From Dehalococcoidia bacterium (GTDB lineage Bacteria > Chloroflexota > Dehalococcoidia > Lucifugimonadales > Australimonadaceae), in NCBI GenBank assembly GCA_965220205.1, contig OZ244812.1, forward strand, positions 2,089,678-2,153,677: a stretch of DNA of 64,000 nt, read 5' to 3'. This document shows, piece by piece, positions 8,495 to 60,905 of the stretch (its first letter is position 1; the number at the start of each line of letters is the position of its first letter). Under the pieces are notes generated by a model, which did no database searches, was not told where the DNA came from, and saw nothing but the letters and a program-made list of their open reading frames with translations. The position numbers and the translations under genes were made by a program.

Positions 8495-8571
8495 TGGTCG
8501 GGGTGATTGGATTCGAACCAACGGCCCCTTGCACCCCATGCAAGTGCGCTTCCGGACTGCGCCACACCCCG
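8495..8571 (-). tRNA. tRNA-Pro (anticodon GGG), CCA encoded
   Basis: Reverse complement reads CGGGGTGTGGCGCAGTCCGGAAGCGCACTTGCATGGGGTGCAAGGGGCCGTTGGTTCGAATCCAATCACCCCGACCA. Acceptor CGGGGTG/CACCCCG, T-arm GGTTCGAATCC, anticodon loop AUGGGGU. Confidence 0.92.
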
Positions 8572-50354: not shown

Positions 50355-50475
50355 CGGGGTGCTAGCCTGATTGGGTGCGCGAATACGCACCGGGAGCTGG
50401 GTGTGGCCTGGCTGAGAGGCCCCGCGAGTACGGGGCGACCGGCTACCTGATCTGGGTAATGCCAGCGGAGGGACG
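50355..50475 (+). promoter_or_regulatory. TPP (THI-box) riboswitch
   Basis: GGGGTGC..., CTGAGAG (50412-50418) and ACCTGATCTGGGTAATGCCAGCGGAGGGA. Upstream of thiG. Confidence 0.9.
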
Positions 50476-50481
50476 CGAGAC

Positions 50482-50512
50482 GGCCACCGTTCCTCCGGCG
50501 GTGGCCTTTTTT
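50482..50512 (+). terminator. riboswitch expression-platform terminator
   Basis: GGCCACCG (50482-50489) ... CGGTGGCC (50499-50506) followed by TTTTTT. Confidence 0.8.
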
Positions 50513-55044: not shown

Positions 55045-56454
55045 GTGACCACTGCCAATGAGAGGCCAACGATGCTCGGCGCCCTGAAGCAGAGCGGATA
55101 CAAGAGTGTACCCGTACGGGATGAGATGCGCCGTAACCTCATCGGCCATATGGAGCGCGGCGAGCAGTTGTTCCCCGGCATCGTCGGATACGACGACTCG
55201 GTCCTGCCGCAGCTGGAGAACGCGATCCTGGCGGGGCAGGACATCATCCTTCTGGGCGAGCGTGGCCAGGCGAAGTCGCGCATCATCCGCGCCCTCGTCA
55301 ATCTGCTCGACGAGGCTATCCCCATCGTCGCGGGGAGCGAGATCAACGACGACCCGTTCAATCCGGCGTCCCGCTACGCCATCGAGCTCGTGGCCGATCA
55401 GGGCGACGACACCGCCATCGAGTGGGTGGGACGCGACCACCGGTACGGCGAGAAGCTGGCGACGCCGGACATTTCGATCGCCGACCTCATCGGCGACGTC
55501 GACCCTATCCGCATCGCCGAGGGCCGCTACCTCTCCGACGAGCTGGCAATCCACTACGGCCTGATCCCGCGGACCAACCGCGGCATCTTCTCGATCAACG
55601 AGCTCCCCGACCTCGCCGAGCGCATCCAGGTGGGGTTGTTCAACCTCATGGAGGAGCGCGATGTCCAGATCAAGGGCTACCGGGTGCGCCTGCCGCTCGA
55701 CGTGCTCGTCGTGGCGAGCGCGAACCCGGAAGACTACACGAACCGCGGCCGCATCATCACGCCGCTCAAGGACCGCTACGGCGCCCAGATTCGCACCCAC
55801 TACCCCCAGGAACTCGCCCAGGAAATCTCCATCATGGAGGCGGAACGCAGGCAGTTCCCGGTGACCGAGGACCGGGTCACCGTGCCAGCGTACGTGAAGG
55901 AGGTCATCGCGGAGTTCACGACGCTCGCCCGCAAGCACCCGGAGGTCAACCAGCGCTCCGGCGTGAGCGTGCGCGTCTCCATCGCCAACTACGAGACGGT
56001 AGTGGCGAACGCGCTCCGGAGGGCCATTCGGGCGGGCGAGCCGCAGGCCGTGCCCCGTCTGACCGACCTTCCCTTCATGATTGCGTCGACGCTGGGCAAG
56101 ATCGAGCTCGAGACGATGGAGAGCGGGCGCGAGGTGCGGGTGCAGGACGACCTGGTCAAGCGCGCCGTCCTCAACGTGTTCGGCCGCTATTTCTCGCCGG
56201 GCGATTTCGACGGGCTGGTGCTCGCGTTCGAGCAGGGCTCGACGCTGGACACCGGCGCCGACATGCCCTCCGGGGAGTACGTGGCCGCGCTCAATCAGTT
56301 CGAGGGGTTCGAGGACGGGCTCGCCCGCCTGCAGCCGGGCGAGGACGCAGCCGCTATCGCGTCCTCGATGGAGTTTGTGTTGGAGGGGCTGCATCTCAAC
56401 AGGCGGCTCAACCGCGACAAGGTGGAAGGCGGCGGCTACCGATACCGCGTGTAA
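55045..56454 (+). CDS. BchI/Mg-chelatase-like AAA+ ATPase
   Basis: Walker A LLGERGQAKS, GIFSINELPDL, ASANPED and sensor regions. 469 aa. The antisense ORF 54844..56502 is an artefact. Confidence 0.82.
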   Translation: MTTANERPTMLGALKQSGYKSVPVRDEMRRNLIGHMERGEQLFPGIVGYDDSVLPQLENAILAGQDIILLGERGQAKSRIIRALVNLLDEAIPIVAGSEINDDPFNPASRYAIELVADQGDDTAIEWVGRDHRYGEKLATPDISIADLIGDVDPIRIAEGRYLSDELAIHYGLIPRTNRGIFSINELPDLAERIQVGLFNLMEERDVQIKGYRVRLPLDVLVVASANPEDYTNRGRIITPLKDRYGAQIRTHYPQELAQEISIMEAERRQFPVTEDRVTVPAYVKEVIAEFTTLARKHPEVNQRSGVSVRVSIANYETVVANALRRAIRAGEPQAVPRLTDLPFMIASTLGKIELETMESGREVRVQDDLVKRAVLNVFGRYFSPGDFDGLVLAFEQGSTLDTGADMPSGEYVAALNQFEGFEDGLARLQPGEDAAAIASSMEFVLEGLHLNRRLNRDKVEGGGYRYRV

Positions 56455-56531: not shown

Positions 56532-57455
56532 ATGGCTAACGAGTCGCAGTACGACGTCGTGATCGTCGGCGGGGGCGCCGCGGGCTTGGCCGCCTCGATC
56601 TACTCCGTCCGCGCGATGCTGAAGACGCTGGTCATCGAGCGGCAGGCGGTTGGCGGCCAGATTCTCTACACGGGCGAGATCGAGAACTACCCCGGGTTCC
56701 CCGAGCCCATCTCCGGACCGGACCTCGCGACGCTCTACGAGAAGCAGGCGGCCCGCTTCGGCGTCGAGTTCGAGTACGACACCGTGACCGCCCTCGACGT
56801 AGCGGGGCCCGTCAAGCGGGCGATCGGCGAGCTCGGCGAGTACACCGCGAAGAGCGTCATCATCACCTCCGGCGGCGAGCACAACAAACTCGGCGTCCCC
56901 GGCGAGGAGGCGTACTCAGGCAGGGGCGTCTCCTACTGCGCGACGTGCGACGGCAACTTCTTCCGCGACATGGACGTCACCGTGGTCGGCGGCGGCGACG
57001 CCGCGCTCGACGAGGGGCTCTATCTCACCCGCATGACGAAGAACGTGACGGTGGTGCACCGCCGCGATGAGCTGCGGGCGAGCAAGATTCTCCAGCAGCG
57101 GGGGTTCGACAACCCCAAGATGCAGTTCGTCTGGGACACGGTCGTCGAGGAGATCCGGGGCAACGGCGCCGTGAACGGCGTGGTCCTCAAGAATCTGAAG
57201 ACAGGGAAAGTCTCCGAGCGCGAGACCGAGGGCGTGTTCATCTACATCGGGTTCCACCCGATCAACGACTTCATGCGCGGCGTCGTGGACCTCGACAACG
57301 CGGGGCACGTCGTCACGGACCTGCAGATGCAGACCAGCGTCCCCGGCGTATTCGCCGCGGGCGACGTCAGGACGTTCTCGGACCGCCAACTCGCCAACGC
57401 CGTCGGCGACGGCGTCAGCGCAGCCCTCTCCGCCTACCGCTACATCGAAGGCTAG
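56532..57455 (+). CDS. trxB: thioredoxin-disulfide reductase
   Basis: VIVGGGAAGLAAS FAD motif, redox-active CATCDG, GGGDAALDEG NADPH motif. Confidence 0.95.
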   Translation: MANESQYDVVIVGGGAAGLAASIYSVRAMLKTLVIERQAVGGQILYTGEIENYPGFPEPISGPDLATLYEKQAARFGVEFEYDTVTALDVAGPVKRAIGELGEYTAKSVIITSGGEHNKLGVPGEEAYSGRGVSYCATCDGNFFRDMDVTVVGGGDAALDEGLYLTRMTKNVTVVHRRDELRASKILQQRGFDNPKMQFVWDTVVEEIRGNGAVNGVVLKNLKTGKVSERETEGVFIYIGFHPINDFMRGVVDLDNAGHVVTDLQMQTSVPGVFAAGDVRTFSDRQLANAVGDGVSAALSAYRYIEG

Positions 57456-58498
57456 TGGACGGCGTCGAGCCAGCCCTTCTCGCGCAGCACGCGCAGCGCC
57501 AGGCCTATCTGGCGCTCCGAGAACTGCTGCTTCTGTGGGTCCCATGCGTACACGCGCTCGATAAGCTCATCCTCAGTCGCGGATGGATGCTCGGCGGCGG
57601 CCCAGTGGACCGTCGCCAGCAGCTCGAGGCCGAAGGTTGACTCGAACCCCGTCGCTAGGTCCGCCACCCTGTCCATACGCTTCTTGGTCGCGGTGTGACT
57701 TTCGAGGAACGCCGTTGCGTCCTCCACGGCGCCGGGGACCAGTTCGAGTTCCTTGCCGGGAGCGTCGCCCCCGTCGGCGTAGCCGGAGATGAGATGACCC
57801 TCGATGTCCTTCAGTACATGCCGCAGGTTCTCGGCGTATGGGCCGTGGGGCGCCTTTGTGTACTTCAATCGAAGAGGCTCGCCCGCCAGCTGCATGAAGT
57901 ACATGAGCTTGTGGACTTCCAGCAGCGTCACGAACGGATCGAGCAGCGCGCGAATGTAGCGGTCCATCAGGCAGACGAGCGCCGCCCGCCCGGCCGTCAT
58001 CTTCGGCACATCGGTGGAACGGTTGGGACGTCCGTCGCTAGCCGCGCTGCCGGGGCTGAAGATCACAGCCTCGACGTCCTCGATCTCGCTCAGCGCGGCT
58101 TCGATTCTCGGGGCCACTTCGCGCCACGACAGGCCGCCGAGATCGCTCGCCAAGGGCGGAATCGCGATCGAGCGGATGTGACGCGCCCTGATCTCCTGGG
58201 CAAGCGTGCGCAAGCCGGAGTCGATGTCTTCCATGCGGCTCTTGCCGCGCCAGTGGCGCTTGGTCGGGAAGTTGATGATGTAGCGCGGGTTGGTGAGCTT
58301 GCCGGTCTCGAACACGAACATCTTGCCGGGCTCGACCTCCTTCCGCTTGCAAGCCGCCGCGTAGGCCTCGAAGTTATCGGGGTAGACGTTCTTGAACTGT
58401 AGCGCGATGCCGCGCCCCATGACGCCCACGCAGTTGACGCTGTTGACCAGAGCTTCGACGTCCTCATGGAATATGTCGCCGGTCTTGTACTCGAACAT
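57452..58498 (-). CDS. darG: DarG antitoxin (N-terminal macrodomain plus C-terminal DarT-binding domain)
   Basis: Macrodomain NSVNCVGVMGRGIALQF...FPTKRHWRG. 348 aa. Immediately downstream of the DarT-like ORFs. Confidence 0.88.
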   Translation of the reverse strand: MFEYKTGDIFHEDVEALVNSVNCVGVMGRGIALQFKNVYPDNFEAYAAACKRKEVEPGKMFVFETGKLTNPRYIINFPTKRHWRGKSRMEDIDSGLRTLAQEIRARHIRSIAIPPLASDLGGLSWREVAPRIEAALSEIEDVEAVIFSPGSAASDGRPNRSTDVPKMTAGRAALVCLMDRYIRALLDPFVTLLEVHKLMYFMQLAGEPLRLKYTKAPHGPYAENLRHVLKDIEGHLISGYADGGDAPGKELELVPGAVEDATAFLESHTATKKRMDRVADLATGFESTFGLELLATVHWAAAEHPSATEDELIERVYAWDPQKQQFSERQIGLALRVLREKGWLDAVH

Positions 58499-58520
58499 AG
58501 CCTCTTTGTCCTTTCCCGCG

Positions 58521-59168
58521 TCAGTAGTACCAGCCGCGTATGATTTGGACAGGTGGACAGTGGGCGGCTCTCTGCATCGCCATCGCCGCCAGCGCTTGGT
58601 TGCCGATGTCAGGAGACAGGACGCCGATACGGGATACCAACTGCCAGGGGAACGACTGCTCCACGAGGAACTCCGCCTGCTTGCGTTCCTTCACAGACGA
58701 CCACTGATGAGCTTGGACCGCGTCCCAATCGATCTGGTCGAGTTGTCCAATATCCGAGTAGTCCTCAGCGTAGGCAGCGGCCGCATTGGAGGTGGTGAAG
58801 GCCCAGCGCCGCCCGTTGGCATCCGCCCAGGCGACCACCTAGCGCAGGTCTGCCTCCAGGTGAACGATCGGCCCCTGGCCTCCTCGATATGCTAGTTCGG
58901 AGTGGTTCTTCATGTAGATTACGTAGAGCATCACGGACCTAGGGCAGAAGTAGAAGGGCACGCACCCCCCGACGGCTAGGCCTGAGTGGCTGGTGAGGGC
59001 GTGTGTTTGCCTCCCCGCCTTGATGCCGGGTATCCCGATGGTAGTGACAGGCTTGTTGTGCCTAGCCATCGCTGCGTCGCACAAGAGCGCACTGTCCGAA
59101 ATGATCGATTGCAGATTGTCTACATGGACGATGTGGTACACCTTTGGGTGTTGTGGCGGTGGCGTCAT
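58521..59168 (-). pseudogene. darT: DarT (DUF4433) ssDNA thymidine ADP-ribosyltransferase toxin, interrupted by one in-frame TAG
   Basis: ORFs 58839..59168 and 58521..58838 share one frame: ...GPIVHLEADLR-[TAG 58841..58839]-VVAWADANGRRWAFT... DarT motifs YHIVHVDNL, VPFYFCPRS, KQAEFLV and RGWYY are all present across the two halves. Confidence 0.85.
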
Positions 59169-59255
59169 CGGAGCGTAGCATAGAACGGCATCGGCCCTCT
59201 GTCACCGGTCCCGCGCCGCCGAGCTGGCCCCGCGGCCGATGGCCGCGCAACAGAG

Positions 59256-59282
59256 AAGGCCCCTCTCGTCGAGAGGGGCCTT
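59256..59282. terminator. 12-bp perfect hairpin downstream of the iscA-like gene
   Basis: AAGGCCCCTCTC-GTC-GAGAGGGGCCTT. Weak T-tract on either strand. Confidence 0.5.
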
Positions 59283-59306
59283 CCGTTTCAGCCTATCGGA
59301 AGGAGG

Positions 59307-59645
59307 CTAGTGGCCGCCGCAGCCGCAGTCGCCGCCGCACGCGCACCCGCCGCCGCTCATGGCGATGTTCGGGTTCGTGATGACGAATCCGCTCCGCATG
59401 AGCCCCTCGGAGTAGTCGATCTCGGCGCCGTCCAGGAGCGGGGCGCTGTCCAGGTCGGTGATGACGCGGATGTTGGCGTCGTGGATGACCAAGTCGTCCT
59501 TGCTTGCCTCGTCTTCGAGCGCCAGCATGTACTGGGCCCCGTTGCCCTGTGGGACCACGATCACGCGCAGCGCGGCTTCCGGCTGCCCCTCCTCGTCCAG
59601 GATCTCCTTCAGCTTGCCAGCAGCGGTGTCAGTGACCGTGATCAT
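59307..59645 (-). CDS. HesB/IscA-family iron-sulfur cluster insertion protein
   Basis: MITVTDTAAGKLKEIL...GFVITNPN with Cys-rich tail GGGCACGGDCGCGGH. Confidence 0.8.
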   Translation of the reverse strand: MITVTDTAAGKLKEILDEEGQPEAALRVIVVPQGNGAQYMLALEDEASKDDLVIHDANIRVITDLDSAPLLDGAEIDYSEGLMRSGFVITNPNIAMSGGGCACGGDCGCGGH

Positions 59646-59891
59646 GGGGTCTCCTTTGCGACGCGGGTTCCAAGAGCCGCACGGAGGAGCGTACCGTACG
59701 GCGGGAGGCCAGTCAAGCAGAACCGGGCGCGCCGCCGGCTCCCTCGCGGGCGTCCGCGCCGTCACGGAATCGGGCGAAGCCCCGATTGCGGCGGTGGCTC
59801 CCGCATTCCCAAATCAAAATTTGTTCTGGTACACTGTGACTGTGCCGGCGCGTGCCGGTGCTGTGAACACTCGTGGGAGGTCTCTCTCGGA

Positions 59892-60131
59892 ATGACCTAT
59901 ATAATCGTTGAGCCCTGCGTCGACCTCAAGGATGCGTCATGCGTCGACGTATGCCCCGTGGACTGCATCTACGAGGGCGAGCGCATGTACTACATCAACC
60001 CGGAAGAGTGTATCGACTGCGCCGCGTGTGAGCCCGTGTGTCCGGTGGCCGCAATCTTCGCCGAGGACGCGGTGCCCGCGGACCAGCAGGAGTACATCGC
60101 GATAAACCGCGATTTCCCCTATCCGAGCTGA
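59892..60131 (+). CDS. 7Fe-type ferredoxin
   Basis: CVDVCPVDCI and CIDCAACEPVCP cluster motifs. 79 aa. Confidence 0.9.
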   Translation: MTYIIVEPCVDLKDASCVDVCPVDCIYEGERMYYINPEECIDCAACEPVCPVAAIFAEDAVPADQQEYIAINRDFPYPS

Positions 60132-60209
60132 CCGCCCACGCGGGCCGACGCAAGAACAGCCAGCCGGCCATCATGAGCCGGCTGGTTTTGCGTCGCCCGC
60201 CTCAGGCGG

Positions 60210-60905
60210 CTAGCCGCCCAGGCTGTCCAGCACTTCCTCGATGGAGCCGCGCAGGCAGGTGAAGATCGGCACGTCCCGCTCCGTGTACGGACGTTGCTCC
60301 GCGCCGCGCAGTTCGATGACCAGCTCGAGGAACCGCTCGGGACTGTCCGTCTCGAACCCCAGCACGAACTCTTGATCGTCCAGGCCGTACGAGTAACTGG
60401 TGTGAATCTTCACTTCCGGGTAGCGGTGACCGACCTTGAAGTGCTCGGTCATCATCCGCTGCCGTTCTTCCGCGGGGAGCTGATGCCAAGCGTGAGTCTT
60501 CACGAACGGGTAGACGAAGAGGTAGGGCTTGTCCATCGGCCGGATGCGAAGGCGGCTCTCCGGCTCTCCGTGCTCGTGCGCGCCGACGTACGTCGAATGG
60601 CGGGTCATCGCAAGGTAGGAGTACGGCGTAGCGAGGTACGTTCCCAGGCGTGTCTGCGCGATGGCGGTCGCGAGCGCGCGGACGCCCTCGAGGCCGGGGC
60701 TGACCAGCCAGATGAGCATATCGGCGTCGCCGCGCATGCCCATGGTCGTATAGGCGCGGACCATCAGGCCGGGGCTCGCATCCTCGAGCACCCCAGCGAG
60801 CTCGCGCTTGTCCTCCGCGCGGTCCTCGACCGGGCGCCGCCGCCATACGGGATCGAGCTTGTAAAAGGTGTACTTGACGATCTGAGGAGCTGGCGTTGTC
60901 GCCAC
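60210..60905 (-). CDS. hemQ: chlorite-dismutase-family protein, probable coproheme decarboxylase
   Basis: 231 aa. YTFYKLDP... and the C-terminal FETDSPERF pattern typical of HemQ/ChdC. Confidence 0.8.
   Translation of the reverse strand: MATTPAPQIVKYTFYKLDPVWRRRPVEDRAEDKRELAGVLEDASPGLMVRAYTTMGMRGDADMLIWLVSPGLEGVRALATAIAQTRLGTYLATPYSYLAMTRHSTYVGAHEHGEPESRLRIRPMDKPYLFVYPFVKTHAWHQLPAEERQRMMTEHFKVGHRYPEVKIHTSYSYGLDDQEFVLGFETDSPERFLELVIELRGAEQRPYTERDVPIFTCLRGSIEEVLDSLGG

Follow-up and report, generated by a model that had tools for sequence, protein, structure and literature searches.

A recent, private amber codon in the toxin gene of a chromosomal DarTG2 module from a Dehalococcoidia bacterium

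The 64-kb stretch of DNA from a Dehalococcoidia bacterium analysed here (the window) carries on its minus strand, at 57452..59168, a darT-darG toxin-antitoxin (TA) pair with darT 5′ of darG. The reading frame of the toxin is interrupted by a single amber codon, the antitoxin gene is uninterrupted, and we are very probably looking at the toxin-first decay of a chromosomal DarTG2 module whose toxin was killed recently by a CAG>TAG change at codon 110. Such a module pairs DarT2, which ADP-ribosylates thymidine in single-stranded DNA, with the macrodomain antitoxin DarG2. The observations described below directly support the identity of the module and the lesion as such, and show it to be derived, private, reproducible and recent. 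According to the proposed sequence of events, the module, located between a HesB-type Fe-S gene and the gene of a thioredoxin reductase, suffered this one change, and translation would now end after a 109-residue fragment. The locus would then no longer act as a toxin or as an abortive-infection device, and DarG would probably still be made from the same promoter. Decay of the module would proceed from intact to toxin-dead and from there to a state in which both genes are dead.

The darT frame runs from an ATG at 59168 to a TGA at 58523..58521 and comprises 215 codons with one internal stop, the TAG at codon 110. It reads MTPPPQHPKVYHIVHVDNL...VPFYFCPRS...HLEADLR(stop)VVAWADANG...KQAEFLV...RGWYY. 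Read through the stop, the protein spans the Pfam profile of DarT from end to end (PF14487, 1-201/201, E=7e-59), and it is also found with the DarT model of PADLOC (E=6e-64) and, in a search of the PDB sequences, with the Thermus DarT 7OMV (7OMV series, E=4e-33). The two halves match PF14487 consecutively, at 1-94 (E=4e-28) and at 99-201 (E=8e-26), and are therefore one interrupted gene and not a chance similarity. The N-terminal fragment (codons 1-109; 58842..59168, minus strand) contains YHIVHVDNL, VPFYFCPRS and Arg53 and is annotated publicly as a separate gene of 109 amino acids (P0132); the C-terminal fragment (codons 111-215 plus TGA; 58521..58838, minus strand) starts with GTG, contains KQAEFLV and RGWYY and is annotated separately with 105 amino acids (P0133). 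The codon of Glu166, the catalytic glutamate of the ADP-ribosylating turn-turn (ARTT) motif by alignment to 7OMV, is at 58671..58673 (minus strand). In the 7OMV chain this residue is aligned with the Ala of KQAAFLV, and the column is invariant in homologues. We take this Ala to be the E160A substitution, in which case Glu166 would correspond to E160 of the DarT2 from T. aquaticus, where E160A is catalytic-null (PMC11543638). Arg53, again in an invariant column, pairs with the second Arg of IQERR, which we take to be the conserved R51. DarG has 348 amino acids and covers 1-328/329 of the PADLOC DarG model with 434 bits. Thus, frame, Pfam and PADLOC bear out the original prediction of a DarT-DarG module with one in-frame amber codon in a toxin of recognisable motifs, next to an intact DarG with macrodomain and C-terminal domain.

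At the position of the amber codon (58839..58841, minus strand), all seven syntenic relatives in a DNA alignment with the window have CAG, and the closest homologues have Gln, including the intact protein P0001 (212 amino acids, 81% identity). This defines CAG as the ancestral codon, as the original prediction had hoped to learn from orthologues, and the lesion as a single C>T transition (at 58841; CAG, Gln, to TAG) private to this genome. In an independent Logan assembly, a contig recorded in two samples (L082; run ERR13605531, 3259 nt) matches the window at 100% identity and has the TAG, which speaks against an assembler artefact. The two half-genes and DarG of the window are also on record from a contig of 2,932,672 bp, and no metagenome contig of the Joint Genome Institute matched the 29 nt surrounding the codon in a scan that permitted either base, C or T. 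That the TAG is seen in one genome only and CAG in all relatives is what would be expected of a sequencing or assembly error or of a minority variant, with a CAG in the real gene and a functional module. But the same base is found in L082 within 3259 identical nucleotides, the change is a substitution and not a homopolymer indel, and independent darT lesions are so common in the relatives that a real lesion is to be expected; we consider an error or variant very unlikely.

A leaky amber codon would be another way to keep the toxin, at trace levels of full-length DarT and thus attenuated and with lower self-toxicity, and a single stop in an otherwise intact frame is compatible with this. Nevertheless, we give it hardly any credence. 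TAG is an ordinary stop here: of the 77 long open frames of the window it closes 35, both hesB and darG end with it, and nothing points to its recoding. Programmed amber recoding is not borne out either, since the stop is absent from all seven relatives and TAG ends many genes. No suppressor tRNA is present in the window, whose only tRNA is a tRNA-Pro, no conserved read-through context was found, and the deletions and frameshifts seen in the relatives are beyond rescue by read-through.

The C that mutated is the inner one of what was ancestrally CCAGG (GCGCCAGGTG, window 58838..58845), the classic Dcm-type context in which deamination of 5-methylcytosine turns CAG into an amber TAG. The window shows no depletion of CCWGG (observed/expected 0.94) and only a mild enrichment of CTAGG (observed/expected 1.42), and we therefore do not regard a Dcm hot spot as a finding; nothing indicates that this organism methylates CCWGG.

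How old is the lesion? Private codons, defined as those in which darT of the window differs from every relative, hold 21.5 synonymous and 24.5 non-synonymous changes, with a neutral expectation of about 1:3.3 (pN/pS, the ratio of non-synonymous to synonymous change, 0.35; binomial p=2e-4). The bias is still seen downstream of the stop (8.5 synonymous versus 7.5 non-synonymous, p=0.018). Most of the private history was thus spent under purifying selection, which by this codon-based measure points to a recent knockout. In line with this, the allele keeps every invariant DarT column of the family and is off the consensus at 5 of the 95 columns with a conservation of 90% or more; intact relatives are off at 8-9. 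Comparison with orthologues did not reveal several further disabling changes in the allele. The original prediction had stated that there is neither a frameshift nor further damage, of which the first part is correct. The second needs amendment: a private, in-frame tandem duplication of 6 bp, GCGATG x2, at 58575..58586 (minus strand) changes AM to AMAM in the variable C-terminal helix and is absent from 7/7 relatives and from 20 aligned homologues. In DarG of the window, five conserved columns deviate, all of them also in close relatives, and none of the deviations is private.

darT and the upstream spacer (58470..59300) share only 86% DNA identity with L001, the fully syntenic relative, compared to 94-97.5% for the flanking genes, and the number of synonymous changes per site (dS) in darT is 0.40 versus 0.08-0.16 in the flanks (about 3-4 fold). 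Long-standing pseudogene decay was considered as the cause of this divergence and rejected: despite the high dS, the ratio of non-synonymous to synonymous change (dN/dS) is 0.24, and the relatives contain at least three mosaic haplotypes. The boundary of the divergent region is sharp at the start of darG, and a hypervariable spacer lies at 59185..59250. These patterns suggest that the divergence of darT stems from recombination or from alleles that have long coexisted at this gene.

What the stop would mean for the protein can be seen from the AlphaFold model of P0001 (pLDDT 84, pTM 0.85). The amber codon falls into the first turn of helix 107-116, which lies between the core strands 100-106 and 121-124. 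On this model, the 109-residue product is the N-terminal, nicotinamide adenine dinucleotide (NAD)-binding half with Arg53 but has no Glu166 strand; translation from the GTG (58838..58836) directly 3′ of the TAG would give a product with Glu166 and without the N-terminal half. As the stop separates the two halves of the fold, neither fragment should be active, that is, ADP-ribosylate DNA, on its own. One could propose that the two products, of 109 and 105 residues, reassemble into an active, perhaps attenuated DarT after a restart at GTG 58838: the TAG adjoins the GTG, a GGAGG is found 14 nt upstream of it, both fragments keep all conserved motifs and the synonymous bias persists downstream of the stop. 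However, GTG and GGAGG are ordinary codons in intact alleles, where they encode V111 and HLEAD, and are no adaptations; reinitiation at this GTG, as put forward in the original prediction, would thus make use of signals that pre-existed and did not evolve for a restart. Furthermore, the helix that is broken belongs to the core and is flanked by two central strands, other genomes do not have a split at this position, and a recent lesion explains the synonymous bias equally well. A functional split toxin is therefore highly improbable in our view.

The same chromosomal site was recovered from L001 and nine more relatives (L083-L091) by cluster look-ups and contig retrieval; seven of them are in the DNA alignment. 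In L001 the order of a chlorite-dismutase-like gene, a ferredoxin gene, the HesB-type Fe-S gene, darT, darG, the thioredoxin reductase gene and a gene for a protein of 469 amino acids is the same as in the window. darT is intact in L001, L085 and L091. In the others it is damaged in various ways: in L086, which belongs to a 2.98-Mb contig, the darT promoter is missing together with some 30 codons at the 5′ end, 16 bp are deleted in L087, the frame is shifted in L083, L084, L088 and L089, and in L090 the sequence from about codon 33 to codon 55 is scrambled and includes a stop. The darT lesions of the relatives are independent events. Altogether, darT is inactivated in 8 of the 12 loci of the clade read as DNA; nine further alleles are seen only as proteins, six of them full-length. 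In L089 and L090, darG is frameshifted as well. The five flanking genes are full-length in these loci, the one exception being the chlorite-dismutase-like gene of L088, which is called longer and has an inserted gene next to it; the indels thus cluster in darTG. In L091, a contig of 3x coverage (L091:3001-4045), darT is intact and darG is frameshifted near codon 262, giving a product of 308 amino acids; if this is real, an intact toxin would stand beside a DarG whose DarT-binding domain is cut short at its end, but a sequencing error is equally possible.

Intact, toxin-dead and both-dead loci at one site are what toxin-first decay predicts. Loss of the antitoxin first would be lethal, and a dead toxin next to a living antitoxin is therefore the expected intermediate in the decay of a TA module.

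The clade is not alone in this. A search with DarG of the window against one genome per GTDB species gave 80 loci with an essentially full-length DarG (63-74% identity, best in metagenome-assembled genomes (MAGs) of Dehalococcoidia and Chloroflexota), of which 79 remained after one that is cut at a contig edge was set aside. Of these 79 loci, 14 have a disrupted darT and one has none, together 15/79 (19%). It is interrupted by nonsense codons in L004 (codon 50), L006 (codon 184), L031 (codon 33) and L043 (codon 141), frameshifted in L016, L021, L026, L040 and L042, multiply damaged or split by insertions in L013, L017 and L080, largely deleted in L012 and L058, and absent in L077. In the Dehalococcoidia MAG with L013:4436-5635, the two darT halves are about 1.2 kb of inserted DNA apart and a frameshift is found in addition. 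The lesions are scattered over codons 33-211, none splits darT at the position seen in the window, and the differing positions identify them as independent events. None of the 80 loci shares the flanking HesB and thioredoxin reductase genes; hence, the insertion site is specific for the clade. The kinship with Dehalococcoidia in this survey shows in the similarity of DarG alone (73-74%).

The toxin lesion may be real and DarG nevertheless be kept alone by selection, either for anti-addiction or immunity against incoming DarT2 toxins or for the repair of ADP-ribosylated thymidine. DarG of the window has no private damage, and a full-length DarG stands beside a broken darT in 14 species-representative loci. 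That non-cognate antitoxins can protect in the case of DarTG2 was observed earlier, as mentioned in PMC11543638, orphan antitoxins of the DarG type are encoded by phages as counter-defence (PMC11825919, PMC13309987), and orphan antitoxins were proposed to be anti-addiction modules (PMC7192599). However, the 80 loci were picked for an intact DarG, so that retention is partly built in, and in L089 and L090 darG was broken too, presumably after darT. Moreover, DarG beside a broken darT deviates more often at conserved columns (mean 3.6 versus 2.5, one-sided p=0.02), which is a weak hint of relaxed constraint, and neither a second DarT nor a second DarG is present within the window. We therefore consider a selected orphan DarG unlikely. 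In the original prediction, two ideas were combined, a freshly inactivated toxin and a DarG retained as anti-DarT immunity. The former agrees with the CAG of the seven relatives, the TAG of L082 and the purifying bias; the latter finds no particular support, given the apparent loss of darG after darT in L089 and L090.

Several points weigh against recent, toxin-first decay as we describe it and should be kept in mind. The loss of activity rests on the logic of the fold, and the TAG immediately before a GTG would allow termination-reinitiation. The contig L082 may go back to the very reads that gave the deposited genome, and its support is at the level of the assembly. Several of the lesions in the relatives are indels of one nucleotide on long-read contigs of 3-8x coverage, and some of them may be errors. 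Finally, the 19% of disrupted or absent darT come from loci picked for a full-length DarG, without a matched control gene.

Upstream of darT, a promoter-like sequence, GTGACA-17 nt-TATGCT, is found at 59177..59205 (minus strand). It ends 8 nt before the ATG of darT, is the only sigma-70-like match in 57300..59400 and is kept in L001, L083-L085, L087 and L088; in L086 it is replaced. The position of this predicted promoter suggests that the darT-darG transcript is leaderless or nearly so. darG (57452..58498, minus strand) starts 22 nt past the stop of darT and has its own Shine-Dalgarno-like sequence, AAGAGG. A terminator-like hairpin of the upstream HesB/IscA-type gene (59260..59276, minus strand) delimits the darTG insert on its 5′ side, next to the hypervariable spacer; the hairpin is conserved among relatives, and the spacer that follows it is divergent. 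Further upstream (window ~59650..60210), the neighbourhood is an insertion hot spot in the relatives, with an IS66-family transposase gene in L083:1725-3059, a REase-ARP restriction-like gene in L088:2085-2786 and about 950 extra bases in L084:1697-2652; the window is without these inserts. On the other side of the module, the gene for the 469-residue protein (55045..56454, plus strand) adjoins the thioredoxin reductase gene and is conserved across the clade at 96-98% identity. No Pfam family is assigned to it, apart from a faint AAA_5 match in one relative. The only Rfam and ARAGORN matches in the window are a thiamine pyrophosphate (TPP) riboswitch at 50380..50490 (plus strand; 55.3 bits versus a gathering score of 54.3) and the tRNA-Pro(GGG) at 8495..8571 (minus strand).

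The antitoxin determines the type of the system. Residues 18-130 of DarG (58109..58447, minus strand) are a macrodomain (Pfam Macro, E=7e-25; 5M3I, E=1e-50; 5M31, E=5e-48). Lys80 in FPTKRHW (codon 58261..58259, minus strand) is invariant in the family; K80 of DarG was described as catalytic (PMC11543638). Residues 167-336 (57491..58000, minus strand) match chain B of PDB entry 7YK3 (E=5e-19), a 'DNA ADP-ribosyl glycohydrolase' of 189 amino acids, and the same entry holds a DNA ADP-ribosyl transferase chain. This region is read as the DarT-binding domain; DarG's C-terminal region is known to bind DarT2 (PMC11543638). A macrodomain antitoxin, as opposed to one with a NADAR domain, defines the thymidine-modifying DarTG2 (PMC11543638, PMC11825919). 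In Pfam and PADLOC, DarG of the window matches only Macro and the DarG model, and no NADAR domain is found; DarTG1 was rejected on this ground. The thymidine specificity cited in the original prediction holds for macrodomain-linked DarT2 (PMC11543638), which is the type present here. By every sequence feature tested, the locus is thus a DarTG2 of the thymidine type, except for the broken toxin frame, and the interrupted frame leads us to class it as a decayed and not as an active DarTG2.

One loop of DarG deserves mention. It reads PPLASDLGGL (58139..58156), with Ala117 (codon 58148..58150) in the window and in all close relatives with an aligned DarG (L001 and L084-L088), whereas Gly117 (PPLGSGLGGL) is invariant in 79/79 DarG proteins of other species. 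The hydrolase activity of DarG may be altered across the clade; the Ala is also found in L001 and L085, in which darT is intact.

Taken by itself, the locus appears routine: a known TA and defence system with a freshly broken toxin, and, to judge from the relatives and the survey, such a loss is common for DarT. Its interest is practical. Defence-system finders score both proteins as DarTG, as PADLOC matches both halves of the toxin, and the genome would be counted as having an active system, very likely wrongly. If a disruption of about one in five holds with proper controls, estimates of DarTG2 prevalence are too high and DarT2 comes at a measurable cost. The clade, with intact, toxin-dead and both-dead loci at one site, is a natural series for the order and tempo of TA decay. 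One could go further and speculate from these counts that inactivation strikes DarT2 far more often than it does the average gene and that DarG2 persists, which could mean that chromosomal DarT2 is usually a net cost and that stand-alone DarG2 is selected, as immunity against incoming DarT toxins or for DNA de-ADP-ribosylation repair. At present we rate this as unlikely; if true, the window would be a snapshot of a recurrent, adaptive conversion of a toxin locus into an orphan antitoxin. Searching the literature for darT pseudogenes, premature stops and bacterial orphan DarG, within the library open to search, we found no report of frequent darT inactivation; the search returned only phage orphan antitoxins and general surveys of orphan antitoxins.

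Compared to the DarTG2 systems of Thermus aquaticus, Mycobacterium tuberculosis and E. coli (7OMV, 5M31, 5M3I, 7YK3), the locus has the same order of darT and darG, a full DarT domain with E166 and Arg53, and a DarG with macrodomain, Lys80 and C-terminal DarT-binding domain. In contrast to these, darT of the window is cut at codon 110 and has the private AM duplication, and the loop PPLASDLGGL of DarG has Ala in place of an otherwise invariant Gly. With DarTG1, in which DarT1 ADP-ribosylates guanosine and is paired with the NADAR-domain protein DarG1, it shares the PF14487 toxin fold family and the operon logic. Orphan and degraded antitoxins are well documented in other TA families (PMC7192599), and the degraded loci of the Klebsiella survey (PMC7192599) resemble the present one in having an antitoxin beside a dead toxin, in the original context and with stages of decay across strains. 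Unlike in these loci, the antitoxin left behind is a 348-residue enzyme and not a small DNA-binding protein, and the lesion consists of one nonsense substitution that can be dated. The orphan DarG-like proteins of phages (the AdfN NADAR proteins, PMC11825919; the DarG2-like protein of a chimallivirus, PMC13309987) are likewise DarG-type hydrolases without a working cognate toxin. But they are phage genes selected for anti-defence, whereas DarG of the window is a chromosomal remnant that is still in its original operon, with the toxin pseudogene attached.

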